A DNA stretch of 64,000 nucleotides from Candidatus Woesearchaeota archaeon (GTDB taxonomy: Archaea; Nanobdellota; Nanobdellia; Pacearchaeales; JAHJTO01), in contig CAZIKY010000001.1 of assembly GCA_964540065.1 (NCBI GenBank), positions 14,798 to 78,797 of the forward strand, written 5' to 3'. This document shows positions 5,227 to 54,633 of this stretch, piece by piece. The translations under genes were made by a program, and so were the position numbers. The notes under the pieces are model-generated. The model was not told where the DNA came from. It did not search any database and saw only the letters and a list, made by a program, of their open reading frames with translations. Positions within the stretch are counted from its first letter, which is position 1; the number at the start of each line of letters is the position of its first letter.

Positions 5227-5424
5227 TCATTTTACTACCCATAAATTCACCCCTGCTTTTTTCATCCTAGTAATTTTGCTATCAAGTGTAAGTTCAAGCA
5301 AATGCTTCTCTGCAGTGTTCCATGAAACCTTCAATTCTTCAGCGATTTCGCTTGTAGTGACTACTTTGGTCTTTTCAACAAGCTTCATTATTTCCTTTTT
5401 GAAATCACGGCTGTCCATTTTCAT
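5227..5424 (-). CDS. small winged-helix DNA-binding protein (paralog 2 of 3), start overlapping the stop of the giant gene
   Basis: 65 aa MKMDSRDFKKEIMKLVEKTKVVTTSEIAEELKVSWNTAEKHLLELTLDSKITRMKKAGVNLWVVK. ATG (5424-5422 on the minus strand) overlaps the TAA (5426-5424) of the 6856-aa ORF, giving TAATG. Confidence 0.7.
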   Translation of the reverse strand: MKMDSRDFKKEIMKLVEKTKVVTTSEIAEELKVSWNTAEKHLLELTLDSKITRMKKAGVNLWVVK

Positions 5425-8400
5425 TAATCATAAACTCCTTTTAGCTCTCCAAGCATCCACTCCCTTACCGCAGCAGAATTATCCCCTATGCTTTTTTTCT
5501 GAGATTCTTTTTTCTTTGATACCATTTTTACATTAGATTTAGCCGAACCGCTAAAGACCGATCTAATCCTAGTTGCATCTTTAGCCCCAATTACTGCTCT
5601 CTCGACTGGCTTGGAATAAACTGCTTTAATTTCCCCTGCAGTTTTATTAAGAATCGAAACTGGCGCAGGCAATATCTTTTCCAGTCTGAAAGCTTTGTCA
5701 ACTTTAGCTGCAAGTCCACTTATTTTTGACGGCTGCACTGAAAGCTGGATAGCCCGCTCTCTGCTCTTAAGATATCTCTCTCTTTCTTCCCGCACAAGAG
5801 AAGATATTCCCTTATACTTGTCGGCAGCAAACCATCCTCTCCTTGGAATTGGAACTCCCTCATTCCTCTGAGAGAATGAAACGATCTGGCTCCTTTCACG
5901 AGGTTTCATTATAGGATCCATTATTGCCGGACCGATTCCTCCAGAGGGCTTGACAATCTTAAGCTCTCCAGAAGGCCCTTTCTTCAGATATCTTTCAAGA
6001 TCTTTGTCAAGTTTGCTTCTGTCCTTCAAGCCATCCCACAACGAGGTGAATTCTTTCCTGATTCTGGCTCCGCTTCTTCTGAACTTTTCAGAAACCGGAT
6101 CTTCAACAAATGAAGGTTCAACTATAGGAGATAACTTAGAATCTTGCTTCTTGAAGTTAAACTTAAACTCTTTCTCAAACAAAGGAGCTTTCCTTTCAGA
6201 GATCTTTGAAGGGCTTAAAGGTTTATGAGGTTTAATCTTTATTTCTCTGTACTCTTCATTTCTTGAACTGAAGATCTTCTCCCCGATCTCGACAATAGAA
6301 GAAATTATCTGTGTCCTCTTCCTTGAATTCAGATAGCTGTTCAACTCTTTATCAAGATTATTATTTCTCGTACTTAAACTGTAAGGTACTTTTTGCTTTA
6401 CCAGAGACTTATTGCTTAGGCTCTTCTGCAGCTGTTCAAGCTCAAATTGAGATTTGGCAGAGGATAAATCAAGCCATTTTTCAGAGAATTTAGGTTTATT
6501 CTGCTCATTTTTCAAAGGAAGTTCATTAACATGGACATAAGAGCCTGAGCCCAACTGTCCTCTCTCGCCATAGAAAACCGGCCTCTTTACTCTCTCATGA
6601 TAATAATTTGTTTTAAAAGAAATAGTTCTGCTTATAGACTCTCCGAGTCTGTCGAAGTAGTTCTTGAAAGGAACATCATAGTGCTTTCTAATAACCCCGA
6701 AGATCCAGCCGTCAGTCCTTTCTAGATACCTTGTTATTACAAATTCGTCATGCTTTCTTCTTCTCCAAGCTATGATAAGCAGCAAGACTAAGAACAATAT
6801 CAATGCAGTCCACAAAATCATCTCCCAAGGAATCTCTTTCTTCTCCACTACTGGGGCAGGTGTAGGAGTCATACAGACTCCATTCTCGCAGTTCTGGCTC
6901 TTGCAGTCAGAATTAAGGTAGCATCTCTTTCCATTATCGCATCTTTCAGAGCAAGTCTTTCCTCCGCAGTCTACATCGCTTTCATCCTGGTTCAGCTTAT
7001 TATCTTTGCAGAAGCTGACTGGTGCAGCAACTTCACATTCTTCATCCAAGGCAGGCCTGTCATCAGTGGTTCCGCAATTATTCTGGTCACTGCAGAACCT
7101 GCTTCTCAATCCTCCAGAGCATGCGCTCCATTCAGTGCAGATCCAGTCTTCTTCACAAACCGGAGTCACAACAGCGCCTCCGCCACCGCCTCCTCCTCCG
7201 CCACCGGAAGGTGCAGGCGCTGCAGGAAGCACAACTGAGAAAGTTACATTCTTGCTGTCAAGATTTCCGGCACTGTCATTTGCAAATGCAATTAGGGTTG
7301 TCGAACCTTCAGGGAAGGTCACATTTACAGGAGAGGTGTAAGTGATATTTGTTCCATTGAAATTATAGAAAATAGTATTCACCCCAGATCCATTGTCCGT
7401 AGCAGACAGATTAACAAGGATAGACTGGCTGCTGTAAGTGATATTCTCCGGACTGTGTATTGTCACATTTGGTTTTATCGTATCCACTGTAAACACTCTG
7501 GTCGCATTTCCGCTGTTTCCTGCAGTATCGTTAACTGTAGCATTGAGAGTTATCGAACCTTCAGGGAAGGTTACAAAGTGTGTAGTGTTATAAACTGCAA
7601 AAGTTCCATTCCAATTATATCTTACAGTGTCAACAGTTCCATTAGGCCCATTAGTAGTGGTTAGGTTCACAAGGATTGTCGCATTATTGTATGTTTTGTT
7701 CTCAGGGCTTACAATCGTAACTGTAGGAGCAGTCACATCAACAGTAAAGGTCACAGTTGCAGATCCTAAATTGCCTACAGTATCATTAGCATAAGCCTTC
7801 AAAGTTATAGATCCTTCAGTAAAGTTAACTATTACTGGAGAGGTGTAAGTAGTGTTTGTGCCGTTCCAATCAAAGAATATCGTAGAAACTCCTGCTCCAG
7901 AATCTGTAGCGCTTATATTTACTAAAAGAGTCCGATTATTGAAAGTTGCTGTTGTAGGATGTATTATTGTAACAGTTGGTGCGGCCGAGTCTACAAAGAA
8001 CAAAATACTGCTTTCATTTGTATTTCCTGAAGTATCATTTGCAATTACAGTCAGGTTATAAGTTCCATTCTGAGGTGGCAATGTGAAAGTGGTATTGTAC
8101 TTATTGCCTGCAACGTTAGTTAAGTTAAACTCATTCACCGCATTGTCTGGATATCTTATTCTTGCGATTACATTATTAACTGCGATATTGTCCGTTACAT
8201 TTGCAGCCACTTCTATCACAGAAGATAAAGCGAAGAAGCTTCCATTCAAAGGCCTAAGATCAAAGACTACTGGCTTCGTTCCATCAGAAGCATTGAAGAA
8301 AGTTGTTTCACTGTTATTAACACTTCCACTAGAGTCATTCGCGAAGAAGCTTACATTGTATCTTCCGAGAAGCTCAGGTATTGCGAATGAAGCATTGAAC

Positions 8401-11400
8401 TTTCCGCTGCTTGTTGCTGGACCGCTTACATTTGTTAAGGTCAGCTGCTGCACAGTCCCATTAGGGAAAGTTACATTTGCTCTTACAGAGCTTACATTTG
8501 CAAATACAGTTGTAACATTAGCGGCGATTTCAATAACATTCGAAGTATTGAAGCTGCTGTTAGCTACTGGTCTAAGATTTTCAACCTTAGGGATTACACT
8601 TCCGAAAGTTACTGTAAGCTGGGCAAAGTCTGCTCCGAAAGCAGCATCATTTCCGTTAGTTGTAATGGTCACATTTATCTTATACCTTATTTGCACAAGT
8701 TTAGTTGTGCTATTTACGAAATCAACAAAAGATCCTCCTAAAGAGGTTGTAGCATTACCCTCATTGATAATGCTTCCATTATATGTTCCAACCTGCTGGA
8801 AAGCTCCTGCTGTCCAGTTGAATAACTCTATAGCAGTTGAATTCTCAGCTACTCCTCCTGGAGCGGATCCTCCGCATGTGAAAGCCCCAGTAGAATCATC
8901 ATTCAAGCAGTGCTCAAGCAAGAAAGTCATGTTTGTTATATCCGAAGCTGAAGCCCCACTAAGCACCCCGCTTAAATTATATGTCAGGTTAAGATGTGTA
9001 TTAAGATCGTTCTGAGCTCCAGCGCCATTGTTCCTTCTTACTGCAAAGTAAACTTGGTCATTTGCCTGTGTAGCAGCAAATGTATTTACCACTTCACTAT
9101 GTCCCTCTCCGAAAGGATCATAAGATCCTTGATCAGGGGTTCCATTTGTAGGATTTTGCTCGGAGAATCCAGGATCTGTAGCATTGTTAATCGTTATAGT
9201 GTAAGTTTCTCCAGGAGTCAAGTTTCTGACAAAGGAATATCCATCATTGCATGTAGTTGTAGAGATTGTAAAGTTCTCACACTTGTAAAGCACAGTTCCG
9301 TTCGCTACTGCAGTCAGGTTTATTGAAGTGAAGTTCAATCCAGAAGGGTCTATGCCGTATGTCTGGGCAAACAAGCTTGAATCGTTCGTCCTGTTTGCAA
9401 TCTTAATCAAAGCGTAAGGTGAAGTTTCAGAGTACCCAGAGACAATTAAAGAGGAGATAGTCTGATTTGTAAGATTTACTGTTACTGTAAGTATTCCAGA
9501 GGAATTCAAGATGACAACTTGAGCGTTATTTATAGAATCTCCGGCAGGATTTACTACATCAAACGTTCTGTTGCCTTCAACGACTCTTGTGAATATAACT
9601 GTAGTTGCATTATTGACATTATTCAAAGTGTCATTTGCTATAATCCTTACAAGATAAGTGCCCTTCTGATCTAGATCCGAGAAAGTGGTGTTGTATGATG
9701 CACTTATATTGCTTGTCTGAAGATCTGTTGTGCTTCCATTAGGGAAAGTGATTCTAACTAGCACAGTATCTACTCCCGTGCTATCTGTTACCAAAGCAGT
9801 CACGCCAACAGTATCGTTCACCCTAAATGTGCTTCCATTTGTTGGGGAAGTGATTGTAACTGAAGGGTTGTTCAACTCACTTACAATAAAGTGCGTCTTT
9901 TCAGTGTTATTCAAATTATTGCTCGTATCATTTGCAACAATAGTCACATTATACCTTCCTTGAAGATCACTAGGCACGCTAAAGCTGGCATTAAACTTGT
10001 TTCCAGAAGTATTGTTTAGAGTCAAAGTGTTTGTAGCTCCATCTGGATAGGTTATTGTGGCTAAAACAGAACTTACAGCAACATTATCGGTAACATTGGC
10101 TGCAATTTCTATAGTTGAACCTAAATTGAATGTTGAGCCATTCAATGGAACTAAACCGGTAACATTTGGATTGATTACATCTAATGCATTGAAGAAAGTA
10201 GTTGAAGTGCTATTTGCATTATTATTTGTATCATTTGCAATGTAAGTGATATTGTATCTTCCAATCAAACTACTTGGCACAACAAAAGATGTATTGAATT
10301 TGTTGCCAGTAACATTTGTCAAAGTTAATTGCTGCACAGTTCCATTAGGCAAGGTTATATTCACAATCACAGTAACTGGGCCGTCATTATCTGTAGCATT
10401 GGCTGCGATTTCTATAGTTTGAGATAAGTTGAAGCCGCTGCCATTTGTAGGCACTAATCCGAATACAGAAGGCTTGATTGTATCTCCAACAATGAAAGAG
10501 GTAGTTGTAACATTGACATTGTTGTTAGTATCATTAACAATGAAAGTTAAGTTGTATTGTCCTTGAGGTGTGCTTGGTATTGTGAAGCTTGTATTAAACT
10601 TGTCTCCAGTTACATTTGTCAAAGTCAACTGCTGGACAGTTCCGTTAGGTAATGTCACATTCACAAGCACTGTTCCAAGAACGCCATTGTCAGTTGCATT
10701 TACAGCAATCTCAATTACATCAGAGACATTGAAGCTGGATCCATTAGAAGGTATAAATCCAAAGACTGCGGGCTTGGCAGTATCGTTTGCTATAAAGAAT
10801 GTTGTTCCAGTGCCGTTCACGTTTCCAAAGGAGTCGTTTGCTACAAAAGTTAAGTTATATCTTCCCTGAAGAGCGTTAGGTATTATAAAGGAAGTGTTGA
10901 ACTTATCTCCCGTAGTATTTGTCAAAGTAAGAACTTGGACAGTTCCATTAGGCAAAGTCAAGTTGGCCTTCACAGAATTTATCTGTCCGCTGTTTGTAAC
11001 ATTAGCCGATATTTCAACCACATCCGAAACATTGAATTGCGTTCCATTAACGGGCCTTAAGTCGAACACGCTTAAAGGAGTAGTATCTACATTTATTGTT
11101 ACATTTTCGGGGTTATTTACATTTCCGGAAGTGTCATTAACGAATACGCTCACAACAGTTGTTCCTTCAGGGAAGGTTACAAACACTGGAGAAGTGTAAG
11201 TCTGATTTGCAGTTCCGTTAAAGAACAATATTGTACTGACTTGGAAGTTATCTGTAGCAGTTATGTTCACCAGGATAGTCGCATTAGTGAAATTTCCCGC
11301 AGATGGGCTGTTAATTGTTACTTGAGGCCTTGTAATGTCATTGACAGTAAAGTTAGTCTTCTCACTAGAGTTAACATTCCCAAATGTATCGTTAGCGATT

Positions 11401-14400
11401 ATTGTTACATTATAGACTCCTGGAACATTGCTGCTCGAAGTTGCAAAGATAGTCGTATAAGTTGCTCCAGACAAAGCCATTGTTTGATTCTGCACAGTTC
11501 CGTTCGGCAAGGTGAATTGAGCAATCACCTTATCAACAGATGTTGTTGCATCGCTTACTGTAGCCACAATAGTCGTTTCTTGTGTCTGATTGATAGAAGC
11601 TTTAGTTGAAGCTACTCCTGTCACACTTGGAGGCACAGAATCTATGAAGATCGTTACCGATTCTGTATCATTCAAGTTTCCAAAAGTATCATTTGCATAA
11701 ACTCTCATTACAGTTGTTCCTTGAGGGAATGTCACAAAAACTGGAGAGGCGTAAGTTTGATTTGCAGTTCCGTTAAAGAACAATACATTCTCAACCGCAT
11801 TATCATCAACAGCAGTTATGTTGACAAGAAGGGTTGCATTAGTGAAGTTGCCGCTTGCAGGACTTACTATAGTAACGTTAGGATTAACCTCATTTGCCAA
11901 AACGAAGAAAGTTGTACTTGTAGAATTGACATTATTTGTGGTGTCATTTGCAGTAAAGGTTATGTTATAGGTTCCAGGCAAGTTAGGTATGCTGAACGAA
12001 GTGTTAAACTTGCCGCCATTTGCAAGAGGGCCAGACACATTTATCAAAGTAAGCACTTGCAAAGTTCCATTTGGCAATGTTAAGTTAACACGCACATCAC
12101 TAACGGCAATATTATCTGTTACATTAGCCGCAATCTCAATATTTTGAGCCACACTAAATGTACTATTAGCAACAGGTATTAATCCGGAAACAGACGGTTT
12201 CTCACTATCTCCCCCTATGAAAGAAGTCCTAGCAGTGCTATTCACATTATTATTAGTATCATTAGCGATGTAGGTTATATTATATGTTCCCTGTATGCCT
12301 GAAGGCACAATAAATGAATTGTTGAACTTAGGGGTGCTTCCAACCTGAGACAAAGTCAAAACGTTTACAGTTCCATTTGGCAGAGTAACATTAGCTAAAA
12401 CGGCATCTATGACTCCATTGTCCGTAACATTTGCAGCGATTTCGACGACCTGGCTTGTATTAAACACCGAGCCATTTACCGGAAGTAATCCAGAGACTGC
12501 AGGGTTAATTGTATCTCCGACAATGAAGGTCGTAATAGTTGTGCTGTTCAGATTGCCATTTGTATCATTTACTAAGAAAGTCAAATTATATTGCCCTTGA
12601 GGAGTATTCGGAATAGTGAATGAACTATTGAATTTATCTCCTACAACACTTGCTAAAGTAACTAGCTGAGAAGTGCCATTAGAGAAAGTGATATTCGCAA
12701 TAGCTGAACTTATAACGCCATTATCGGTTGCATTTATTGCAATTTCAATCACATCTGAAGCGTTGAAGCTTGTTCCATTTGCAGGGACTGCCCCAAAGAC
12801 TGCAGGTCTAACAGTGTCATTTGAAATGAAGAATGTAGTCTCAGTCGAATTAACATTATTGCTCGTGTCATTAGCAATGAACGTTATATTGTATCTTCCT
12901 TGAGGGGTGTTTGGTAGAGTGAAACTAGCATTATACTTGCTTCCAGTAGCTAAGCTCAAGTTAAGCTGCTGTACCGTTCCATTAGGGAATGTTACATTAG
13001 CTCTCACAGAGCTAACTCCGAAGTTGTCGGTTACGTTTGCAGCTAATTCAACGGTGTCAGAAGCATTGAACTGAGTTCCTGCAACAGGAACTAAACCTAC
13101 AACAAGAGGTTTTGTTGTATCTCCGCCTATGAAGAAAGTTGTTTCCGTGTTATTTACATTGTTATTTGTATCATTTGCAATGAAAGTTACATTATATCTT
13201 CCAGCTATATTTGGTATGCTGAAGGAAGTGTTATACTTGTCTCCCCCAACATTTGTTAAGACAAGGTTATTTGTCGCACCATTAGGATATTTCAACTGGG
13301 CCTTTACAGTATCAACGACTCCATTGTCGGTCACATTTGTCGCGATTTCTATGCTTACAAGAGTAGGGAATGTAGTGTCATTTGGAGGGATAAATCCAAA
13401 GACACTAGGCTTTATCGTATCATTCGCGATAAAGAAGGTAGTTACAGAACTGTTTACATTGTTTTTAGTATCATTCGCGATAAAGGTTAGGTTGTACCTT
13501 CCTTGAGGTGTGTTTGGTATTGTGAAGGAAACATTGAATTTGTTTGCAGCACTGTGATTTGTTATCGCACTTACATTTGTCAAAGTCAGCTGCTGCACAG
13601 TTCCATTAGGGAATGTTACATTTGCTAAAACTGCACTTATGTTTGAAGATAAGTCACTTATATTAGCGGCTATTTCAACAACATCTGAAACATTAAATGT
13701 AGCTCCAGCATTTGGAGATACAATATCGATAGACGGGCCAAAGATATCGCTTACATTGAAGAAAGTTCTTTCAGTGTTGTTAACATTATTGCTGCTGTCA
13801 TTAGCAAAGAAGCTTACATTATACCTTCCGCCAAAGTCAGGTATTGTGAATGAAGCATTATACTTATCTCCCCCTGCGTTAACCAATGCAAACTCTTCAA
13901 ATGCCCCATCTGGATAAGTGACTGTAACTGAAACTGTGCTTACTGCCACATTATCTGTGACGTTTGCAGCTATCTCTATGACGCTAGTAGCTGCAAAGTG
14001 GCTTCCATTAACTGGGATGAGGCTAAATACTCTTGGAGCCAAAGTATCATTTGCATTAAAGAAGCTTGTTACAGAGCTGTTTACATTGTTATTTGTATCA
14101 TTTGCAATGTAAGTCAGATTATATCTTCCAGCAAGATTAGGGACAGTAAAGGAAACATTGAATTTGTCTCCAGTTGCATTTGTCAAAGTAAGCTGTTGCA
14201 CCGTTCCATTTGGCAAGGTTACATTTACAATTGCAGCGCTTATAACTCCGTTGTCTGTTATATTGGCTGCAATCTCTACAATATCTGCGATGTTAAATGA
14301 GCTCCCATTAATAGGCCTAGAATCAAAGACTGCAGGATTTATTGTATCTCCAACAGTAAATACTGTAACTACTGTGCTATTCACATTGTTGTTGCTGTCA

Positions 14401-17400
14401 TTTGCTATAAATGTAACATTATACTGTCCCTGAAGATCATTTGGAATAGTGAATGAAACATTATACCTGGAGCCGTTAGCCAAGCTTAATGTTAAAACAT
14501 TTACGGTTCCATTAGGCAAGGTTACATTTGCAGTAACAGAACTTACTGCGACATTATCTGTAACATTTACTCCAATTTCGATAGTGTCCGAAACATTGAA
14601 AGACGTTCCATTAGCAGGAATCACCCCGGATACTGCCGGAACAAGAGTGTCTGCTACAGTGAAGAAAGTCTTCTCAGAACTGTTTACATTATTGTTAGTA
14701 TCATTTGCAATAATTGTAACATTATAAGTTCCCTGCAATACTGGTATTGTGAATGAAGTGTTGAACTTGTCTGTGCCAGAAATTTGGCTGAGTGTTAGGA
14801 CATTTACAGTTCCATTTGGCAAGGTCACATTTGCAATTACTGCACTTATCACTCCATTGTCGGTTACATTTGCAGAAACTTCAATTATATCAGAAGTGTT
14901 GAAGCTGCTTCCATTTGTAGGCAACAGCTCGAACACGGCTGGCCTAATCGTGTCTCCAACTATAAATGTGGTCGTGGTGCTACTATTTACATTGTTATTT
15001 GTATCATTTGCTATGAAAGTTAAGTTGTACTGTCCTTGAGGTGTGCTTGGTATCGTGAAGCTTGTATTAAACTTGTCTCCAGTTACATTTGTCAAAGTCA
15101 ACTGTTGGACAGTTCCGTTAGGTAATGTCGCATTCACAAGCACTGTTCCAAGAACGCCATTGTCAGTTGCATTTACAGCAATCTCAATTACATCAGAAAC
15201 ATTGAAGCTAGTTCCGTTTGCAGGAACTGCTCCAAAGACTGCAGGATTAATTGTGTCTCCAACAATAAAGTTGGTAGTTATGCTGCTATTCAGGTTATTA
15301 TTGGTGTCATTTACTAAGAAAGTCAAATTATACTGTCCCTGAGGTGTGTTTGGTATTGTGAAGGAAACATTGAATTTATCTCCACCAACACTAGTCAAAG
15401 TCAGCAACTGAGATGTTCCATTAGACAAAGTCAAGTTAGCTATAACTGAACTTATTACTCCATTGTCTGTTGCATTTACTGCAATCTCTATTACATCCGA
15501 AGAGTTGAATGATGTCCCTGCTGCAGGTATGGCTCCAAACGCTGCAGGCTTTACCGTGTCATTAGCAATAAAGAAAGTTGTTTCTGTGGAATTCAAATTA
15601 TTGCTCGAATCGTTAGCAATGAAGGTTATATTGTACCTTCCCTGCAATGCTTGAGGTATCGTAAAGGAAGCATTGAATTTATCTCCCAACACATTTGTCA
15701 AATTCAAGACCTGTACTGTTCCATTAGGAAGAGTCACATTAGCTTTTACTGCACTGACTGCAAAGTCATCTGTAACATTAGCAGATATTTCTACGACATC
15801 TGAAACATTGAATGCCGTGCCATTTACTGGCTTGATATCAAGGACTGAAGGCCTTGCTTGATCTCCTCCTATGAAGAAGGTAGTTTCAGTATTGTTGACA
15901 TTATTGTTCGTGTCATTTGCAATGAAGGTAACATTGAATCTTCCATCAATATCTGGAACAGTGAAAGAAGTATTGAATTTATCACCCCCCACATTGGTTA
16001 AAGTCAAGGTATTGGTTGCTCCATTAGGATATTTGATCTGGGCCCTTACTGTACTTATTACTCCATTATCCGTTACATTAGCTGCGATTTCAATCACATC
16101 AAGACTTCCAAAAGTCGTTCCATTTGGAGGGACAAGTGCAGCAACACTTGGCCTTATAGTGTCATTTGCAGTGAAGAAAGTTGTATTCGTCCCAAGGTTA
16201 TTCAAAGTATCATTCGCTATGAAAGTAATGTTGTACCTTCCCTGCAGAGCATTAGGAATAGTGAATGAGACATTAAACTTGTTTGCAGCACTGTGATTAG
16301 TTATAGCACTTACATTTGTAAGAGTCAACTGCTGGACAGTTCCGTTGGGGAAAGTAACGTTTGCAATAACTGCGCTTAAATTAGAATTTCCGTCAGAGAC
16401 ATTAGCGGATATCTCAATTACATCTGAGACGTTGAATAAAGCTCCATCACTAGGAGAAGTAATTATTATTGATGGGGCAAAGACATCCCCTACTTCAAAG
16501 AAAGTCGTCTCAGTATTGTTGATGTTATTGGATGTATCATTCGCAAAGAAGCTTACATTATACCTTCCGCCAATATTTGGAATACTTAATGAAGCATTGT
16601 ATTTATTCCCTGCAGCATTTACAAGAGTAAGATCGACAGTCGCCCCATCAGGATAAGTTACTGTAGCAGAAACAAAGCTTACTGCCGCGTTATCCGTAAC
16701 ATTAGCGGCAACCTCTATGCTCGTGAGACTAGTAAAGTTAGTTCCAGCAGAAGGGATGAATCCAGATACCTGTGGAGCGGAAGTGTCATTTACTTCAAAG
16801 AAGCTTGTTACTGAGCTGTTTACATTATTATTTGTATCATTGGCAATGTAAGTCAAATTATATCTTCCAGCAAGGTCTGGAATAGTGAAGCTAGCATTGA
16901 ACTTGTCTCCAGAAACATTTGCCAAAGTTAAAGTTTGTAAGGTTCCATTAGGCAAAGTCAAGTTTGCCACCACTGCACTAATCACCCCATTATCAGTCAC
17001 ATTTGCAGATATTTCAATGACATCTGCAACATCAAATTGGCTGCCATTTACCGGTCTGACATCGAAAACTTCGGGCTTTATTGTGTCTCCTGCAACGAAG
17101 AAAGTTGTTTCTGTAGAGTTTACATTATTAGCAGTATCGTTCGCAATATAAGTTATGTTATATTGGCCTTGAGGAGTATTTGGCAGGGTAAAGGAGGTAT
17201 TGAATTTATCTCCCAACACATTTGTCAAATTCAAGACCTGTACTGTTCCATTAGGAAGGGTTACATTGGCCAAGACTTTGCTTATAGCAACATTATCCGT
17301 AACGTTCACAGCCACTTCTATTGTGTCTGAAACGTTGAAGCTGCTGTTTGAAACGGGCCTAAAATCAAAGACTAAAGGACTAGTCGTATCTGCTACATTA

Positions 17401-20400
17401 AATGAAGTCGTTTCAGTAGAATTCACATTCCCTGCAGTGTCATTAGCAATAAACCTCGCAGAATAAGTGCCCTCCAAGCCAGAAGGCAAAGTGAAGGAGG
17501 TATTGAATTTACCCCCATTAATCAAAGGCCCGCTTACATTTGTCAAGGTCAAAACTTGAACAGTCCCATTAGGAAGAGTAATATTAGCACTTACAGAATC
17601 TACTCCTGAGAATTGTTCGGTCAAATTAGCTGCTATTTCAATAGTTGCTGAAGAGGTGAATGAAGAGTTGTTTGCAGGAACCAATCCGGATAATCTTGGG
17701 GCAACAACATCTGTTGCCTCTACAGTGAAATTAACCAAAGAAGCGCTTATTGGCGGGAAGGTTAAAGTTTTAAGAGTAGTATTTACGACAGTGTCATTAG
17801 TCAAATCGAAAGTCCCGCTGGAGTTCGTGAAGTTAACTGTAAATCTCGCTTCTTCATCTCCTTCAGGCAAATAAGTAGAATAATTGGTAAAGACAGTTAT
17901 ATTTCTTATGGATCCAGTTTGCACAAAGATGGTTTCCAAATCAACTCTCCATCTTTTTACAGTAGTCTCATTAAGCGTAAAGGTTTCATTATCTATCAAA
18001 GCATTTTGATATTCTACCCGAGCAGTATTATTTATAGCGCTGCTTCCACCTATAAACTCAGTCCGATAGTTTATGACGTTCCCGGTAAAAACAGTCAAGT
18101 TTTCAAGAGGCATCAAAGACACATTATCTGATGCCCAGAATCCGCCTGTCGAGTTATAAACCCTGGTTTTATTCGCTATGACTCTCTGCCCAAATCTACC
18201 GAGAACTTCTAATGCTTGGAACAGATTTATTCTTCCACTATTAGCAGAGGTATTATTGAGCAAAATTGTATGGTTAACTGTGACGTTAAGCGTTTGATCT
18301 GGCCCTATTGTTAAATTGAAGCTTTCCTGCTTGTTTTCAATTATCTCTGTAATCACGTTAAGGGGTTCTGGATGGTGAATTTCTAGATTAACCTCCTGAT
18401 CAGAATAATTATAGAACAAATTAACCGAAACATTGGTCGTACTTGAAAGGCTCGAGTCTGCATCGCAATGTATATGCATAGATAAGAAATTTGTTTTTCC
18501 AATGGTAACACCATCTAGGGTAGCATTTTGCTCGAACAAAGTAGGGGTCGTTGTTAGGCTGCCTGAAGGCTCTCCACATAGTTCATAGGTGTCTTCTAAA
18601 TTCGATGTGGATAAGTGATAACATAGTTTTGGCTTGCAAACATTGTTCGCGGAAGCAGATAAGTTTGCCCTCATAGTTACTATCCCCTGCATGTTGAAGT
18701 TTCTTAAGAAGCTGCAAGGCACATTAGTATTAGAGCCACAGAAGAAGATTCTCAAGCCATTCACATCAGTTTGATTAGGGGAAATAGACATATTAAAAGT
18801 CTTATTTACATATGAGGTAGAGTTAGGTGCAACTTTAGATAGCCAGGTAGTGGAACTAGATAGATTATTATCTGTTCCTCCAAAGAAGATGTTCCCAGTA
18901 TTAATTATGTAATTAAGCCAGAAAGTGCTTGCGACAGTGCTGCTTGAAGCAGCATTCATTGAAGGAGAACTGCAGCTCAGAGTATAATTAGTTATGTCAA
19001 ATTCTATGGTATTGTCTAGGCTTCCAGAATAATTCCCAGTAGTACTGTTGAAAGTAAGTGTAGTCACAGAATTCGAATTATTTGAGGTAACATTACATGT
19101 CCCATCGACTATAGGGGCAGAATTTATTGGATTAACATAACTTGCCTCAAATAAAATAAACACTTTGACTCCAAAATTTGGATTTTCTTCTGCAGTTGCC
19201 GCGGTTCCCTGGAAGTATTCAGTCTTATCTGTGGAAAGAGTGGCATTTGAAACCCCATCAAAGGTGAAATTTGTTCTTTCGGTGGAATTCAAATTATTGC
19301 TCGTATCATTAGCAATAAATGTTACGTTATATGTCCCTTTAAGATTTGGTATACTGAAAGATTGATTGAACTTATCTGTACCCGTAACTTGATTGAGTGT
19401 TAGTACATTTATCGTTCCATTTGGAAGAGTGACGTTTGCTAAAACAGTGTTTATCTCAAAGTTATCTGTAACATTTGCAGAGATTTCAATTACACTTAGA
19501 TTAGAAGCATTAAATCCGCTTACCGGCCTTAAATCAAACACTAAAGGTCTAACCGTATCTCCGCCTATGAAGAAAGTTGTTTCCGTGTTATTTACATTGT
19601 TATTCGTGTCATTTGCGATGAAAGTTACATTATATCTTCCAGTAACGCTTGGTATTGTGAAGGAAACATTGAATTTATCTCCTCCCACCGAAACCAGTGT
19701 GAGAGTATTTGAAGCTCCGTCAGGATAATCAATTTTAGCTAAAACTTTGTCAATTACTCCATTGTCCGTTACATTTGCGGCGATTTCTATTACACTTAAG
19801 CTAGGGAATGCACTCGAATTAGGCGGAACCAAACTTGCAACTGAAGGCCTAATCGTATCATTGGCTATAAAGAAGGTAGTAACCGTGCTGTTGACATTGT
19901 TCCTAGTATCGTTCGCAATAAAGGTTATATTATATCTCCCTTGAAGATTGTTTGGAATCGTGAAAGAAGTATTAAACTTCCCGCCGTTAGCAAGCGGCCC
20001 AGAGACATTAGTCAGAGTTAAAACATTAACAGTTCCATTTGGAAGTGTAAGATTAGCCGACACAAAACTTACATTGGAATCTGAATCTGTAACATTTGCA
20101 GAAATTTCAACTACATCCGATACATTAAATACTGTCCCGTTAGTAGGTGTAGCATTTATAACTAAAGGTGCAAATGCATCTCCGGCTATGAAGAAAGTAG
20201 TTTCTGTATTGTTTATGTTTCCAATTGTATCCTGCGCAAAGTAGCTTAGATTATATCTTCCTTCGATATTAGGTATAGTGAAGGAAGTGTTGAACTTATC
20301 TCCATTAGGATTAACCAGACTTAAGGTAATCGTGGCCCCGTCTGGGTATGTTACAGTTACATTAGCTGAAATTGAGCTAAGGTCTGTGATATTTGCTGCA

Positions 20401-23400
20401 ATCTCTATTGTTGCATTCGTCAAGAAGTTAGTTCCAGCAGAAGGAATCAAACTAAAGACTAACGGACTTTCATTATCTGTTACTTCAAAGATAATTATTT
20501 CAGTGTTATTTAGGTTATTATTAGTATCGTTCGCGAGGAATCTTACCGTATAAAATCCTCCTTCTCCAGGAGCAGTAAATGAGGCGTTGAATTTATTCCC
20601 CGTAACATTTGCCAATGTCAGCAATTCTGCAGTTCCGTTAGGGAAAGTTATATTCGCAATAACTGTACTGATAACACCATTATCGGTCACATTTGCAGCA
20701 ATTTCTATCGTATCCCCAACAGTAAAGCTTGTCCCATTCAAAGGCTTTAGGCCAAATACTGCGGGCCTAACAGTATCATTTGCAATGAAGAAGGTAGTTT
20801 CAGTAGAGTTTACATTATCTGAAGTATCTGTTGCGATGAACGTGATATTGTATCTTCCCTGAGGAGTATTTGGAAGGGTGAAGCTTCTATTGTACTTGCT
20901 ATTGCCAACATTTGAAAGTGTCAGATTTTGAACTGTTCCATTAGGGAAAGTTACATTAACTGAAACAGCGGCAACTGCTCCATTATCAGTGACATTAGCA
21001 GCAATCTCAATAGTATCTGAAACATTGAATTGAGTCCCATTTACTGGTGTGACGATTATAACATTCGGGGGAGTCGCATCTCCCTGCAGCAAGAAGGTCG
21101 TGGTAGTGCTGTTTACATTATTATTGGTGTCATTAGCAATAAACGTAATGTTATATTGTCCGACCAAAGATGGCACGGTAAAGGAAGTGTTAAACTTCCC
21201 TCCGCCAATAAGGGAGCCGCTTACATTTGTCAAAGTCAAAACGTTTACAGTTCCATTTGGCAGGCTTATGTTTGCCAAAACTGTATCGATGACTCCGTTA
21301 TCAGTCACATTTGCAGCTATCTCAATAACCTGAGAAGCCATAACATTTAGGCCTTCAGGAGGGTGGACTGAAACTACTCTTGGATTTACAGTGTCTCCTG
21401 CAATGAAATTAGTTATAGTCGTAGCATTAGTGTTCCCCGTGGAATCGTTAGCAATGAAAGTTATATTATACTGACCCTGCAATTCGTTAGGAATTGTGAA
21501 GGAAACATTGAATTTGTCAGTCGAATTAAATTGACTTAAAGTCAAGACATTTACTGTGCCATTTGGCAAGGTTAAATTAACTCTCACGGTCTGCAGATCC
21601 AAATTATCCGTTACGTTAGCGGCTATTTCAACAACATCAGATACATTAAAGGATGTCCCATTTTGAGGAGATAATAGTGTAACTGAAGGATTCCTTGTAT
21701 CTCCTGCATTGAAAAATGTCGTTTCAGTGTTATTCACATTATCATCTGTATCATTGGCGAAGAAGGTCAGGTTGTATCTTCCCAAAATATTAGGTATTGT
21801 AAAGCTTGCGTTGAACTTATCTCCGACAGAATTGTTTAAGACAAGAGTGTTTACTGCCCCATCAGGATAAACAATCGTCACAGAGACAAAGGATAAGACT
21901 CCATTATCCGTTACATTAGCTGCGATCTCAATTGTATCAGTCAAACCGAAATCTGTATCTTCAACTGGAACTAAGGAGGAGACCAAAGGAATTTGCGTGT
22001 CTGCCCCTATGAATGTCGTTGTTTCAGTGCTGTTGACGTTTCCCCTAGTATCATTTGCAATTATCCTTACAGTATATTGCCCTATCAAACCAATAGGGAT
22101 TGTAAAGCTGGTATTGTACTTTGTTGTGCTTGTATTTGTCAAAGTTAAAGTCTGCACAGTTCCATTTGGAAGGGTGACATTTGCAAGTACCTGACTCACA
22201 GCTGAAAGGTCATCAGTCACATTCGCAGCTATTTCTAAAGTTTCAAGCAAATTGAATGTCGTACCGTTTGCAGGCACTAATCCGATAACTGATGGAGGAT
22301 CAAAGTCGCCGCTGAAGAAGTGAGTTTTCTCAGTGTTGTTTGTATTTCCATTGGTATCATTTGCAACAATAGTCACATTATATCTTCCGATCAAATTTGG
22401 AACCAAGAAAGAAGTGTTATACTTATCTCCTACAGCGTTAGATAATGTCAAAGTGTTTATGGCCCCATCAGGATATTGAACAAGGGCCCTTACAGTTTGA
22501 ATTACTCCATTATCCGTGACGTTTGCGGCAATTTCTATGGTAGATAGAACCTCAAAGCTTGTTCCTGCAACGGGGATCAGGTCAAATACAGAAGGTCTAA
22601 CCGTATCGTTAGCTATGAAGAAGGTTGTTTCGGTATTGTTTACATTATTATTCGTGTCATTAGCAATGAACGTGATATTGTATCTTCCTTGAGGGGTGTT
22701 TGGCAGAGTAAAAGAAGTGTTGAATCTTGTGTTATTGCTAAGAGGGCCGCTAATATTCGCCAAAGTAAGTAGCTGAGAAGTCCCATTAGGGAAAGTTATA
22801 TTGGCTAATAAAGCGCTTATGACTCCATTATCTGTAACATTGGCTGCAATCTCAATGGTGTCAGAAACATTGAATGGTGTTCCATTTGGTTTAAAGTCAA
22901 AAACTCTTGGGTTAATAGTATCTCCTACAGTAAAGTTGGTCCTTTCAGTAGTATTGAAAGAGTTGCTGGAATCGTTAGCAATGAAGGTTATATTGTAGGT
23001 TCCTTGCAGATCATTTGGTATGTTGAAGGAGGTGTTAAACTTGCCTCCAAGAGAGAGCAGTCCACTCACATTGGTCAAAGTTAGCTGTTGTACCGTTCCA
23101 TTAGGGAAAGTTATATTGGCACGGACAGCACTTACAGCTACATCATCAGTCACATTTGCAGCTATTTCAATTACGTCTGAGGTGTTGAATGAAGTGTTGT
23201 TTACCGGCCTTAAATCAAAAACACTTGGGATCGTCACGTCATTAGCAATGAAGAAAGTTGTTGTTGTAGAATTAACGTTATTGCTTGAATCGTTCGCAAC
23301 AAAAGTAACATTATATCTCCCAGTGATATTGTAAAGAGTAAAGGAATTGTTGAACTTATTAGTTGTGCTGTTATGGCTAACTAAAGCGCTCACATTATTC

Positions 23401-49230: not shown

Positions 49231-50634
49231 TTATTTTTTCAGATTAATTATCTTATTATAAAGCTTGATCGCATGGTGATGCACCTTTCCAAATTCTTTC
49301 TTTGATAAGACGTGCCCATACTTCTCCATTCTGCTTTTCAGCTCAGAATATTCAGCTGAAGCCTTCTTGTAATCTCCTTTTGAAGCATAGTCTTCTCCCC
49401 GAGAGATGATCTCCAAGGCCTCTCTATAGGGCTTCTTGCTTCCAATAAATGCTTTCACAATCATGTAAATCAAGATTATGATTATCAATCCGAAAATAAA
49501 GGCAAATACTATAAGCAAGTTGCCCACTTTGCCTTCAGAAACGCATATTCTTTCTTCCCAAGGTTTATCCTCTTCAGTTCCGCATTCATTAACATCTTGG
49601 CATAATCTTGTTTGTTTAAATCCAACACATTCAGACCATGGAGAGCATTCCCACTTTTCCTTGCAGATTATTTCCGGAGCCAATTCTATTTCTTCTTCAG
49701 AGATATTCGTCTCCTCTTCTTCTACAGGAGTGATATTGATTATTCTGCCTCCACCTCCACCGCCGCCACCGCCTCCACCGCCAGTATCCGGCGCAGGAGT
49801 TGCCGGATTTTCAGCAGCAGAGTAAACAGTGAAATGAGTGACATTAAATGTTAAAGTTCCTCCGGAATAATTTACTCTCGTGCAAACAGAAGAAGAGCAA
49901 GTTACCCCGTTCCTTAGAATTATTGGATCAGTAAAGGTTAGCCCAGATAAAGTAAGCTGCGCTTTCTTGTTTAGATTAGGCAGGTTTCCAACATCAACTT
50001 CTATTCGATTGAAAGATAGGTTAACATTACTGTCAAAATCAACTAAATTGTCTTGGGGATTAAAATCATCAGTAACATTCACTGTATCTATAAACTGAAT
50101 TTTACCGTGCCTGGTATCCTCAAAGGTAAGATTTGAAATGTTGCCCAGCTCTTCTAAAGTAAAATCATTTAGATTGGTAGAATTCCCCTTAAATTCCCCG
50201 GCGAAACTGCTGAAATTAATTGTCAGCCGGGTTGTATTCACTGTAAAGGTTATATTCTGAGCATCGACGCCAAAGCTGTTATTTGCATAAATAAATAGGG
50301 TATGATTTCCGGATGAAGCATTGAACCTAGCCGTTGTTTGGCTGCCGGGAAAGGTAAAATTCTCACCATTATCTACATTGAACCACCAATAATCTATGCC
50401 CAATAAAATAAGCTCGATTGGCAGAGAGTCATTAACCAAATAAGTCCCGCTGGTAGGCTTAACAATCGCAAATGCTGGAATTCCTGCTCCAACTTCAATG
50501 GAAACTGCCAAAGAAGCTTGAGTAGCCTTTCCCGTAACCTCTTTCGCGTAAACAGAGCCAGATACTGAAAGTAAAATTATCAGAACAGCTAAAAGCAGTA
50601 TAAAAGCAAAAGACCTCTTTTCCATCATAAACAA
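49231..50634 (-). CDS. secreted, membrane-anchored surface protein sharing the poly-Gly / 6-Cys stalk module of the giant protein
   Basis: Signal peptide (MFMMEKRSFAFILLLAVLIILLSVSGSVYA), sequon-rich ectodomain, ...PATPAPDTGGGGGGGGGGGG..., Cys module CKEKWECSPWSECVGFKQTRLCQDVNECGTEEDKPWEERIC, TM (LLIVFAFIFGLIIIILIYMIV), 85-aa cytoplasmic tail. Confidence 0.75.
   Translation of the reverse strand: MFMMEKRSFAFILLLAVLIILLSVSGSVYAKEVTGKATQASLAVSIEVGAGIPAFAIVKPTSGTYLVNDSLPIELILLGIDYWWFNVDNGENFTFPGSQTTARFNASSGNHTLFIYANNSFGVDAQNITFTVNTTRLTINFSSFAGEFKGNSTNLNDFTLEELGNISNLTFEDTRHGKIQFIDTVNVTDDFNPQDNLVDFDSNVNLSFNRIEVDVGNLPNLNKKAQLTLSGLTFTDPIILRNGVTCSSSVCTRVNYSGGTLTFNVTHFTVYSAAENPATPAPDTGGGGGGGGGGGGRIINITPVEEEETNISEEEIELAPEIICKEKWECSPWSECVGFKQTRLCQDVNECGTEEDKPWEERICVSEGKVGNLLIVFAFIFGLIIIILIYMIVKAFIGSKKPYREALEIISRGEDYASKGDYKKASAEYSELKSRMEKYGHVLSKKEFGKVHHHAIKLYNKIINLKK
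49748..49782 (-). repeat. GC-rich GGN codon run encoding a Gly12 linker
   Basis: cctccacctccaccgccgccaccgcctccaccgcc encodes ...DTGGGGGGGGGGGGRII... in gene 49231..50634. Parallel to the tract at 7175-7206. Confidence 0.9.
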
Positions 50635-50698
50635 AGCTCTGGAAGATATTTAAAAGTTATTAGCCTCGCTTAAAGATATAGGAATAAGATAAATAAAC

Positions 50699-51262
50699 TT
50701 ACTTCTTCTTTTTTCTAAGATACCTTAATATTGCCCACAAGACAATTATCAAGGCAATTACAACTGCAAAGAAAGCTGTAAGATTCTCTCTTGAAGGTGC
50801 GGGCTGTTCTTGAGCAGACTTATCAACAACCCTTACTGGGAAGCTGATATCAAGTGCAGAGCCAAAAGCGATCCCATTACCACTGTCACGGGTTACAGTT
50901 CTCAAAGACAAAGTTACAGAGTATTCTGAACCAATAGGGGCATTTTCTGGAATCTCTATCAAAACTTGCGCATAATTACTTGAGCTACCAGCAGCCAGAA
51001 GATATTCTTTATTTTCCGTACTTGCAATTTCTCCACCGTTAGTTACGGAAAGCTGAACTGTGACATCTTCCTCTCCTGCGACATTCTGAAGATTTACTGG
51101 AAGGCTTAAAGATTCTCCAGGAGCTAAAAGCAAGGGATTATTTCTCGAAGGCCCTAATGAAACCCCCAGGGCGCTTGCAAATGAAGATAAACTTACTAAA
51201 ACAACAAAAGATATTGCAAGGAAGGTTATTCCCTTTTTTCCATCCATTTTATTTTGTACCAT
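50699..51262 (-). CDS. secreted protein with a C-terminal TM anchor and KKKK tail
   Basis: N-terminal signal/anchor (ITFLAISFVVLVSLSSFASA); C-terminal ...LTAFFAVVIALIIVLWAILRYLRKKKK. Confidence 0.55.
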   Translation of the reverse strand: MVQNKMDGKKGITFLAISFVVLVSLSSFASALGVSLGPSRNNPLLLAPGESLSLPVNLQNVAGEEDVTVQLSVTNGGEIASTENKEYLLAAGSSSNYAQVLIEIPENAPIGSEYSVTLSLRTVTRDSGNGIAFGSALDISFPVRVVDKSAQEQPAPSRENLTAFFAVVIALIIVLWAILRYLRKKKK

Positions 51263-51289
51263 TTTATCTTTTTATATCTTTATTTATCC

Positions 51290-52333
51290 TTAAAAAGTTG
51301 CTTTAAGTGTCCAAGCCCCTTCAGCGGAAGTGGTGTAATTCTGCCTTGGCAATGAAGGGACTAAGTTAACGCAATATCTGTTTGTAATGAATTGATTTGG
51401 ATTGCCTGCATCAGTCTGCACCTTCGGCAAAAATCCATATGAGGCAGTTGAATTGGCAGTCACTATGAAATCATAATTTATCAATTGTGTACCTTGACAT
51501 ACATTATTTAAACCAGTGGCATTTGTTTGAGCTCCGGTTGAATTGGCGGTTGCAGAGGTGAAATTACCTGCATAAAGGACAAAGCCTGTTAAGACGTTAC
51601 CTACAAGATTGGTTGAGTTCAGCTCGACTGTTAACGCTTGAGTATTTCCAGTATTGTTAATCGTGTTGTTGTTATCAGAAGTTACGTTTGCAACCCCTAC
51701 AGTCAAATTAGATAATGTAATGGATAAAGGTGCCACGGTTACTGCCGTAAGACTGTTAATAGACTGGTTCTGCGAGCTATTTTCTCCGCGAGCTCCTGCA
51801 AAAATATCCTTAGTTGTGGCATTCACTTTCCAGCTATTAGTTTCATTGCTTGCACAGTCGAAATACTGGAAAGTTACAGTGCAGGTGAAACTTAAAGTAT
51901 TCGAGGTTGCAGAAGGGACGCTTTGGTTAGTACATAAAGCTCCCCTGTTTCTTGATTCCCCATTGCAATTAGTATAAGAGACATTAAGGAAAGTTTGAGT
52001 CAGGTTGATGTCTGTAGCCCCATCAAGATCAAAGACAGTAACATTGTAGCTTCTAGAAGTTGTAGTACCCTCAGCTAGATCTATTGTAGAATTAACGTTT
52101 GAGCATGCGAGGAAACTTCCAGTGCTATTTGAACACAAAACTGTCCTTACTTCAGGAGCAGTATTCGAAGTTACAGTTGCTGTAACATTTGTCCCTGCGC
52201 TGGTTGCTCTTCCAGTAAAAAGATCGAAAAAACCTGCAGAAGCAAGTGGAGCTAAAGAAAGTGTAATTAGTATGATTCCAAGAATTAATGCTTTTTTAGA
52301 CTGCATCTTTCCCTCTTTTGATTTTATAAACAA
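51290..52333 (-). CDS. secreted sequon-rich Cys-containing protein (hypothetical)
   Basis: Signal peptide (ALILGIILITLSLAPLASA), many N-x-S/T sequons, several Cys; no C-terminal anchor. Confidence 0.5.
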   Translation of the reverse strand: MFIKSKEGKMQSKKALILGIILITLSLAPLASAGFFDLFTGRATSAGTNVTATVTSNTAPEVRTVLCSNSTGSFLACSNVNSTIDLAEGTTTSRSYNVTVFDLDGATDINLTQTFLNVSYTNCNGESRNRGALCTNQSVPSATSNTLSFTCTVTFQYFDCASNETNSWKVNATTKDIFAGARGENSSQNQSINSLTAVTVAPLSITLSNLTVGVANVTSDNNNTINNTGNTQALTVELNSTNLVGNVLTGFVLYAGNFTSATANSTGAQTNATGLNNVCQGTQLINYDFIVTANSTASYGFLPKVQTDAGNPNQFITNRYCVNLVPSLPRQNYTTSAEGAWTLKATF

Positions 52334-52400
52334 ACTGCCGGGGTTTATAAACTCTTCTTCAAAAGGTTAATGGAGCAAGAGTGGTAAATTTACTTATATC

Positions 52401-54170: not shown

Positions 54171-54185
54171 ATTAAGTACTTAATT

Positions 54186-54254
54186 ACTTAATATGTATGA
54201 TTTTATACTTAAAAACGTTCCTATTTTAGGTATAAAATACTTAATTTGTATGAT
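54186..54254. promoter_or_regulatory. 17-bp direct repeat TACTTAAT(A/T)TGTATGAT x2 in the promoter region of gene 52401..54170
   Basis: Copies at 54186-54202 and 54238-54254 with one mismatch, 52 bp apart, 16-84 bp upstream of the start codon at 54170. Confidence 0.4.
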
Positions 54255-54312
54255 AAATCAAATTAAGGAAAAAGTGGTTAAAATACGGGGAAAAACTAGA
54301 AAATAAGGAGTC

Positions 54313-54591
54313 TTACTGCTGCGGTTGCTGTTGAGGAAGCCTAAGGCATTCTACTGCAATAAGATTAAGGGTAACATTATTTGCAGTTAAAGGAACTGCC
54401 TGGCAAGTTGCTGCTTGCTGCATTATTTCGACAACTGCGCTTTCAAAACCATACTGGGCGCCCGCTTGGACTAAACCAAGCTGCTGCTTGCTTTTGACAT
54501 TTTTGTAAACACCATAACCGGTATAAGATAAAGATAAAACTAAAAGAACAGCTAATACCCAAATAACAACCCTTTGTTTATCTCTCTCCAT
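54313..54591 (-). CDS. small N-terminally anchored protein with Gln-rich C-terminus (hypothetical)
   Basis: 92 aa. TM VVIWVLAVLLVLSLSYTGYG; ends ...PQQQPQQ. Between the fibre gene and the HTH-membrane gene. Confidence 0.4.
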   Translation of the reverse strand: MERDKQRVVIWVLAVLLVLSLSYTGYGVYKNVKSKQQLGLVQAGAQYGFESAVVEIMQQAATCQAVPLTANNVTLNLIAVECLRLPQQQPQQ

Positions 54592-54633
54592 TTTGCTAAT
54601 TTTAGTTGTAATTACCTATTTAAATATTTTAGC

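Follow-up and report, generated by a model that had tools for sequence, protein, structure and literature searches.

The 64,000-nucleotide stretch of DNA analysed here (hereafter the window; positions 14,798 to 78,797 of contig CAZIKY010000001.1, assembly GCA_964540065.1, Candidatus Woesearchaeota archaeon) encodes two surface proteins, one giant and one small. In both, the C-terminal stalk runs in the same order from a Pro/Ala segment through a run of 10 to 12 Gly residues and a compact module with six Cys residues to a transmembrane (TM) helix. This shared order, first proposed in a first-pass annotation made from the letters of the sequence, is real, and the six-Cys module is the subject of this report. 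The features of the two proteins, in window coordinates, are as follows.

5424..25994, minus strand: giant surface protein, 6856 aa (open reading frame (ORF) listing)
7206..7229, minus strand: Pro/Ala segment LPAAPAPS of the giant protein, opening the linker past the last Ig-like repeat
7176..7205, minus strand: G10 run of the giant protein, mixed GGN codons
7035..7157, minus strand: six-Cys module, giant copy, CEEDWICTEWSACSGGLRSRFCSDQNNCGTTDDRPALDEEC, aa 6280-6320, 41 residues
6873..7010, minus strand: second Cys-rich segment of the giant protein, 8 Cys, CKDNKLNQDESDVDCGGKTCSERCDNGKRCYLNSDCKSQNCENGVC, between module and membrane
6765..6827, minus strand: C-proximal TM helix of the giant protein, WEMILWTALILFLVLLLIIAW, with RRRKHDEF after the helix (positive-inside)
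5424..6764, minus strand: cytoplasmic tail of the giant protein, 446 aa, without Cys and poor in sequons
49231..50625, minus strand: small surface protein, 464 aa from the ATG (exact product on record; ORF listed as 49231..50634)
49783..49809, minus strand: Pro/Ala segment NPATPAPDT of the small protein
49747..49782, minus strand: G12 run of the small protein, mixed GGN codons
49666..49746, minus strand: acidic spacer of the small protein, 27 aa, RIINITPVEEEETNISEEEIELAPEII, between the Gly run and the module
49543..49665, minus strand: six-Cys module, small copy, aa 321-361, separated from the TM helix by 5 residues
49456..49527, minus strand: TM helix of the small protein, VGNLLIVFAFIFGLIIIILIYMIV, with KAFIGSKKPYR after the helix

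The giant protein opens with a basic stretch and a TM helix at aa 30-52 and continues into an ectodomain of ~6,300 aa made of Ig-like repeats, in which Pfam recognizes Big_7 (19 stretches), Big_3_3, DUF4625 and Big_13. This ectodomain holds 508 N-x-S/T sequons, or 8.0 per 100 aa where composition predicts 2.8, against 2 (0.45 per 100 aa) in the tail, a density that, read from the sequence, implies extremely dense N-glycosylation. Within the stalk, the spacer AVVTPV separates the G10 run, probably a flexible hinge, from the six-Cys module, EVAAPVSF links the module to the 8-Cys segment, and MTPTPAPVVEKKEIP bridges that segment and the TM helix. The 95-aa stalk contains 14 of the protein's 28 Cys and the tail contains none. 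Neither Pfam nor a PDB sequence search gave a match for the 8-Cys segment, and Pfam gave none for the 446-aa tail. The small protein consists of a signal peptide, an Ig-like N-terminal region, the stalk, the TM helix and a 74-aa tail. Since the giant protein has the N-terminal TM helix with its basic stretch and the sequon contrast between ectodomain and tail, and since basic residues follow the C-proximal TM helices of both proteins, the module is placed outside the cell. The description of the module as lying directly before the membrane holds for the small protein, where 5 residues intervene, and fails for the giant protein, where 69 residues separate it from the C-proximal TM helix and the 8-Cys segment lies among them.

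A part of the 8-Cys segment, D-x-D-C-G-G-x2-C-x2-C, belongs to the motif [DE]-x(1,3)-[DE]-C-G-G-x(1,2)-C-x2-C, which also occurs 20-30 residues before the C-terminal TM helix of other proteins. Its carriers (our entries L014, L016, L021/L022 and P0099) are unrelated proteins that also have the six-Cys module. Of the two elements, it may be this motif that keeps more strictly to the neighbourhood of the membrane.

The modules of the giant and small proteins share 18 of 41 positions, all six Cys and both Trp included, and the core W.C..WS.C occurs at only these two sites in the six-frame translation of the window. Both copies fit the spacing C-x5-C-x5-C-x8-C-x5-C-x12-C and the accompanying family rule, in which a Trp stands at +4 from Cys1 and another at +3 from Cys2, an Arg stands two residues ahead of Cys4, D-x-N follows Cys4 and K/R-P follows Cys5; six Cys, both Trp, the Arg, D-x-N and [KR]-P are thus all in place, and the giant copy has Arg at position 20 where Gln is usual. 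The pattern originally written for the pair is right overall, its end being off by one for the giant copy, which reads P-x3-E-E-C and not P-x2-E-x-C. The Gly tracts had been called homopolymeric and prone to slippage. They are imperfect triplet repeats of mixed GGT/GGC/GGA codons (80% matches at period 6 in Tandem Repeats Finder) and not homopolymers, and with such a mixture of codons slippage is a weak proposal. When a profile hidden Markov model (HMM) was built from 98 foreign copies only, it scored the small copy at 54.0 bits and the giant copy at 53.6 bits (E about 1e-15 in the six-frame window), and the runner-up segment in the window reached 9.5 bits; on this basis both window copies are ordinary members of a wider family.

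To define that family, we ran an exhaustive HMMER search with a two-copy profile against 1.84 billion representative proteins (clusters at 50% identity), which returned 5,630 clusters at E<=1e-3; of these, 1,212 reached E<=1e-10 and 117 reached E<=1e-30. The strongest hits hold 3-13 tandem copies with a period of 45 residues. By our own domain count, the best 150 of the 5,630, a list biased towards multi-copy proteins, carry 3-11 copies each, arranged head to tail with a period of 40-49 residues. From 474 copies of exactly 45 residues we obtained the consensus xxCxExWxCxxWSxCxNGxQTRxCxDxNxCGTxxxKPxxxQxC, in which four Cys are invariant and conservation is also high at W7 (100%), W12 (97%), D26 (97%), P37 (97%), R22 (93%) and Q20 (85%).

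Genome loci were collected with the peptide NGQQTRTC, taken from a consensus-like alignment of nine sequences, so the 36 loci obtained are a sample biased to copies having that peptide; they come from DPANN archaea and from bacteria of the candidate phyla radiation (CPR). The DPANN carriers comprise Woesearchaeota, Pacearchaeota, Nanoarchaeota, Micrarchaeota, Diapherotrites and Parvarchaeum, and the CPR carriers Saccharibacteria, Staskawiczbacteria, Nomurabacteria, Paceibacterota and other Patescibacteria. A few module-bearing metagenome-assembled genomes are labelled Methanosarcinales or Gammaproteobacteria, and the named cluster members of the family belong to Micrarchaeota and Gracilibacteria. 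Some of these taxon labels are unreliable, because two bins of one aquifer project, labelled Nomurabacteria (L021) and Woesearchaeota (L022), differ at only 16 of 4,535 nt, a conflict that reflects either binning or a very recent inter-domain transfer of the module-carrying gene. Despite these doubts the bacterial occurrence is real, because the module gene has bacterial neighbours in two loci, being flanked by a single-chain RNA polymerase beta-prime gene and FtsK in one (L005) and adjoining a MraY-type glycosyltransferase in the other (L008); 7 of 83 family proteins, moreover, have a domain that binds peptidoglycan.

Two variant forms were also seen. In IMG/VR viral contigs (L043-L048), five of six loci encode proteins of 693-891 aa with a divergent four-Cys relative of the module, C-T-[FY]-T-Y-x2-W-x2-C-x-N-G-x-Q-T-R-[TF]-[VA]...P-x-G-C, that scores 14-22 bits and adjoins PKD, DUF1565 or beta-helix-like regions; these sequences suggest that the family reaches into phage or virus surface proteins. 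Two Patescibacteria single-cell genomes (L031, L032) encode proteins with a polytopic N-terminal membrane domain followed by G10-11, PPPP and four tandem modules, which have an extra residue (C-T-E-D-T-W-x-C) and C-P or C-R replacing C-G-T. Their Gly run thus also lies at the membrane-to-module junction, in the order opposite to that of the window proteins.

Family members keep the company of envelope proteins. Among 83 family proteins the partner Pfam domains included S-layer (10/83), PG_binding_1 (7/83) and CARDB (5/83), together with Ig-like families, Laminin_G, CBM96, FG-GAP and beta-helix domains, all of them envelope or extracellular, and no Pfam family covered the module itself. In some proteins the module sits between extracellular domains, as in the orders Laminin_G-module and fn3-module-FG-GAP. 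In the best 150 proteins an N-terminal hydrophobic segment is present in 116, a TM helix past the last copy in 32 and one within 60 aa in 18. The first-pass annotation had asked whether the module always lies N-terminal to a TM helix, and it does not, 118 of these 150 having no TM helix past the last copy. We then took a census of 43 ORFs at genomic and metagenomic loci, of which 40 have an intact 3' end. Of its 29 single-copy ORFs, 14 have a TM helix within 60 aa downstream of the module, as do 3 of its 11 multi-copy ORFs, at distances of 5 to 59 aa. A Gly run of at least 5 residues lies within 30 aa upstream of the module in 6 of the 43. The order Gly/Ser-rich linker, module, TM helix recurs in seven loci (L027, L028, L029, L034, L035, L038 and L039), for example as SSGGGGGGG, module, 37 aa and TM helix in L027, as G13, module and TM helix in L028, and with only 5-6 aa between module and TM helix in L038 and L039. 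Judged from these sequences, the family is a modular building block of DPANN and CPR/Patescibacteria surface proteins, usually in tandem and sometimes as a single copy, and the membrane-proximal single copy appears as one recurrent use of a general-purpose domain. The notion of a disulfide-stabilized stalk is reasonable for the two window proteins; that of a special membrane-proximal element gives way to a large repeat family.

The small protein shows how the module can come to stand in a stalk. Its 29 homologues align at 35-47% identity across the N-terminal 50-63% of the query; all 29 retain its N-terminal domain, and most also have a Gly-rich linker of the form ETP...G(n), with longest Gly runs of 3 to 8 residues. 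The six-Cys module is present in none of them (0/29). Where it would be, the homologues have ~230 aa of Ig-like domains, then a TM helix. The expectation that homologous surface proteins would retain the module was thus disappointed, and because it is absent from all 29 it is not a conserved stalk feature of the small-protein family. At another locus (L006) the module is followed by a Gly8 run and then by the same Ig-like domains as in the homologues. As these homologues and L006 combine linker, module and Ig-like domains differently, C-terminal parts appear to have been exchanged at the Gly-rich linker, and domain shuffling at that linker most likely placed the module in the small protein. 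The window itself is archaeal: the named homologues are from Pacearchaeota or an unclassified archaeon, and a TFIIE-alpha gene adjoins the small-protein gene. The only other assembly with this gene, Logan SRR5011273, is identical to the window across 5,395 nt.

The curated libraries searched do not describe the module. Pfam (2025 copy) and NCBIfam (2026 copy) returned nothing on the module, on the stalk or on ten foreign proteins with up to ten copies, and a PDB sequence search with 2-sequence and 100-sequence module profiles returned nothing at E below 0.1; the earlier statement that the module lies outside named families therefore stands. No profile match linked it to a known domain such as EGF-like or TNFR-like, these families appearing among Pfam matches at E<=10 only as a lone JAG1-like_EGF2 at E=7.1. 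A word-indexed protein search with short module profiles yielded no candidates, and a full-text literature search found no description of the six-Cys module. DUF7107, tried as an identity for the module, matched only at E=1.2 and was absent among the matches of 100 copies.

The pattern of Cys loss across the family offers a view of the disulfides. Cys2 and Cys4 are both missing in 40 of 474 copies, while just one of the pair is missing in 2 of 474, and the lost residues are usually replaced by Thr/Val (T/V, I/V). Such joint loss is the mark of a Cys2-Cys4 disulfide, and we infer that all six Cys of the module form disulfides. AlphaFold2, supplied with family alignments, modelled the giant copy at pLDDT 91.8 and the small copy at 91.0, with the same four short strands in both.

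We put at roughly 0.8 the probability that the module is a shuffled, compact, beta-rich, three-disulfide extracellular mini-domain of ~45 aa, a spacer or adhesion unit from a family missing from the searched libraries. In the window proteins, a heavily N-glycosylated Ig-repeat ectodomain would pass into a flexible Pro/Ala and poly-Gly hinge, then into one rigid disulfide-locked module (joined in the giant protein by the 8-Cys element), then into the TM helix and finally the cytoplasmic tail. The module would most likely serve as a stiff spacer or pedestal, resistant to proteases, on which the ectodomain stands, and its conserved Trp/Arg/Asp/Asn surface might bind a ligand; spacing or adhesion is the function that we infer. 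Several points weigh against this interpretation. A spacer is the default reading for any small disulfide domain, and the conservation outside the Cys exceeds what a passive spacer needs, a hint of binding or of strict demands on the structural core. Anoxic groundwater is the home of many carriers, and in that setting disulfides need not form outside the cell. The biases stated above, to multi-copy proteins in the best-150 list and to one peptide in the genome loci, count here as well.

The alternative that survives best, which we hold as possible and clearly second to the mini-domain reading, makes the module a true divergent homologue of the thrombospondin type-1 repeat (TSR). Like the TSRs of eukaryotes, apicomplexans included, it would be mainly an adhesive unit that binds ligands or glycans and with which episymbionts would grip host cells, and less a passive spacer. 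The predicted fold speaks for it to a degree. In Foldseek searches of the PDB with both models, the domain-spanning alignments (42-49 columns) were, for both window copies, only to chains containing TSRs: the TSR of Toxoplasma MIC2 (8j64_B, TM-score 0.54/0.51), TSR4 of F-spondin (1vex, with the giant model only), the TSR-like domain of pleiotrophin, and chains of the complement membrane attack complex, whose aligned part may not be their TSR, a point that weakens the case. All other matches were fragments of 18-37 columns with TMq 0.40 or less, and every Foldseek match, of either model, had E>1. Among sub-threshold Pfam matches of 100 copies, TSP1_ADAMTS was tied with Brr6_like_C_C as the most recurrent, matching 5 of the 100 with a best E of 0.0032. 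The stretch W-S-x-C...G-x-Q-T-R-x-C resembles the TSR sequence W-S-x-C-S-x2-C-G-x-G-x-Q-x-R-x-R-x-C, and hhalign against seven TSRs, whose sequences were checked against PDB chains 1lsl and 1w0r, aligned its G-x-Q-T-R-x-C part. Surface residues of the module are strongly conserved, which makes a binding role conceivable, as in TSR adhesins, and the lineages carrying it are thought to live attached to hosts.

Set against this, the hhalign match had a probability of 6.7% over 13 columns, and none of ten multi-copy proteins (up to 10 tandem copies) gave TSP_1 at E<=0.1. The sequence marks of the layered Cys, Trp and Arg of a TSR, where a Trp ladder on strand A pairs with R-x-R(-x-R) on strand B, are not reproduced either: the consensus is W-x-C-x2-W, with its Trp five positions apart, and it has a single conserved Arg, in Q-T-R, the giant copy happening to hold R-S-R. 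TSRs pair their Cys as C1-C5, C2-C6 and C3-C4 in group 1 and as C1-C4, C2-C5 and C3-C6 in group 2, and the Cys2-Cys4 pair deduced for the module matches neither arrangement. We describe the modelled fold as TSR-like and do not claim TSR homology.

We regard as distinctly unlikely the suggestion that the six Cys, in place of forming disulfides, bind a metal as a Zn, Fe or Cu cluster, which would give the module a metal-binding or redox role outside the cell. In its favour, the module is rich in Cys, one partner protein has a Cu-binding MopE motif, and many module carriers come from anoxic habitats; against this, Cys2 and Cys4 are lost jointly to hydrophobic residues, as expected of a disulfide buried in a core, the module has no conserved His and no CxxC or CxxCH spacing, and AlphaFold2 folds it confidently without a ligand.

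Less probable still is the proposal of the first-pass annotation that an enzyme of surface attachment or processing recognizes the module as its tag, much as archaeosortases recognize PGF-CTERM and PEF-CTERM. A C-terminal TM helix does lie near the module in the window proteins and in the 14 of 29 single-copy proteins, and weak NCBIfam matches to Heimdall-CTERM (E=0.14, 12.6 bits, cut-off 24) and GG_III-CTERM were found on the TM region. No CTERM model reached threshold, however, and the best of these matches lies on the TM helix and off the module. The module is a confidently folded domain and not a short linear motif, it forms tandem arrays and sits between other extracellular domains, 118 of the best 150 proteins have no TM helix past it, its spacing from a TM helix ranges from 5 to 59 aa in the ORF census, and the tails of 446 aa and 74 aa differ from the short basic tail of sorting signals. 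It also occurs in bacteria as well as archaea, beside differing anchors. We thus drop the tag idea in favour of the extracellular mini-domain.

Finally, a recent intragenomic duplication or gene conversion, or a chance resemblance of Cys-rich low-complexity sequence, is scarcely credible as the source of the likeness between the two window proteins. BLASTP does align the giant protein's C-terminal ectodomain with the small protein (382 columns, 28% identity, E=9e-13), but the 39% identity between the two module copies falls inside the 29-51% that they share with foreign copies, so that they are no closer mutually than to those copies and are not a recent duplicate. The closest relatives of the giant copy (L038 and L039, about 50% identity) are in other metagenomes, and the scores of 53-54 bits from the HMM of foreign copies exclude chance.

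For the recognition and holding of hosts by DPANN archaea and CPR bacteria, surface proteins are the leading candidates, and they are mostly annotated as hypothetical; more than 5,600 clusters at 50% identity with no Pfam or NCBIfam model amount to a real annotation gap. With a model of the family, domain limits could be drawn in thousands of envelope proteins of giant or medium size, and these proteins could be recognized as extracellular. Work on structure and binding would gain a defined, small and stable unit of 45 residues with three disulfides and a confident model. The module matters chiefly as a handle for annotation and, in these surface proteins, as a candidate unit of adhesion. For the two window proteins the meaning is modest, an ordinary linker with a shuffled structural domain and no new sorting system. 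A bolder view, which we find doubtful, is that of a TSR-like superfamily, missing from the searched libraries and concentrated in DPANN and CPR, the two host-attached radiations of ultra-small prokaryotes. It would have been exchanged between both domains of life and would serve as a host-surface adhesion unit, the prokaryotic counterpart of apicomplexan TSR adhesins, with a divergent four-Cys form on viral contigs as well. If the TSR link is true, a fold of eukaryotic matrix proteins and parasite adhesins would be extended into both prokaryotic domains.

The small-protein gene stands in a run of five consecutive same-strand genes (49231..63966, minus strand), of which those for 464, 187, 347 and 3110 aa have products of secreted or membrane-anchored appearance and the fifth encodes a 589-aa protein; from its gene content the run looks like an island of surface-protein genes. 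The 187-aa product combines a VWA7-type Ig-like domain with a C-terminal TM helix. Towards the C terminus of the 3110-aa ORF (54634..63966, minus strand) lies a Peptidase_S74 domain ('chaperone of endosialidase', E=1.9e-11) with a Glu/Pro-rich tail after it; Peptidase_S74 is an intramolecular chaperone of phage tail-spike and fibre proteins, here found on an archaeal giant surface protein. The 589-aa protein (52401..54170, minus strand) runs from an N-proximal TM helix through a sequon-rich ectodomain and a second hydrophobic segment to a C-terminal sigma-70 region-4-type helix-turn-helix (E=1.6e-7), and it looks like a membrane-tethered transcription regulator within the surface-protein gene cluster.

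Among known systems, the TSR shares most with the module. Both are small six-Cys extracellular modules of ~45-55 residues, both often occur in tandem and beside the TM anchor of type I surface adhesins (apicomplexan TRAP and MIC2), and both have a local W-S-x-C...G-x-Q-x-R-x-C. The module differs in its W-x4-W with a Cys between, where the TSR has a ladder W-x2-W(-x2-W), and in having one conserved Arg where the TSR has R-x-R; it is shorter, without the C-S-x2-C-G insertion of the TSR, and it is found in DPANN archaea and CPR bacteria, whereas the TSR is found in eukaryotes. With PGF-CTERM and PEF-CTERM the likeness is one of position, some modules lying near the C-terminal TM helix of an archaeal surface protein with a Pro/Thr/Gly-rich linker before them. 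Those signals consist of a short linear motif at the extreme C terminus, a TM helix and a few basic residues, whereas the module folds as a 45-aa disulfide domain that is often present in several copies and often remote from any TM helix, and here it comes with long cytoplasmic tails. The EGF-like and TNFR-type Cys-rich units of eukaryotic type I membrane proteins work in the manner proposed here for the module, as small disulfide-knit pieces piled into a rigid stalk that sets a ligand-binding ectodomain off from the membrane, but their Cys spacing is another, they have no core of Trp, Gln-Thr-Arg and Asp-x-Asn such as the module has, and no profile of theirs matches it. The haloarchaeal S-layer glycoprotein has a Thr/Pro-rich, O-glycosylated membrane-proximal stalk, and the window proteins resemble it in placing a flexible low-complexity linker just outside the membrane anchor of an archaeal surface glycoprotein; they differ in that the linker is Pro/Ala followed by a pure Gly run and then a folded Cys-rich domain, and in being anchored by a conventional TM helix that continues into a cytoplasmic tail. 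Measured against these systems, the six-Cys module is a familiar sort of object, a small Cys-rich extracellular repeat, and what is new is a family that the curated libraries searched do not include.

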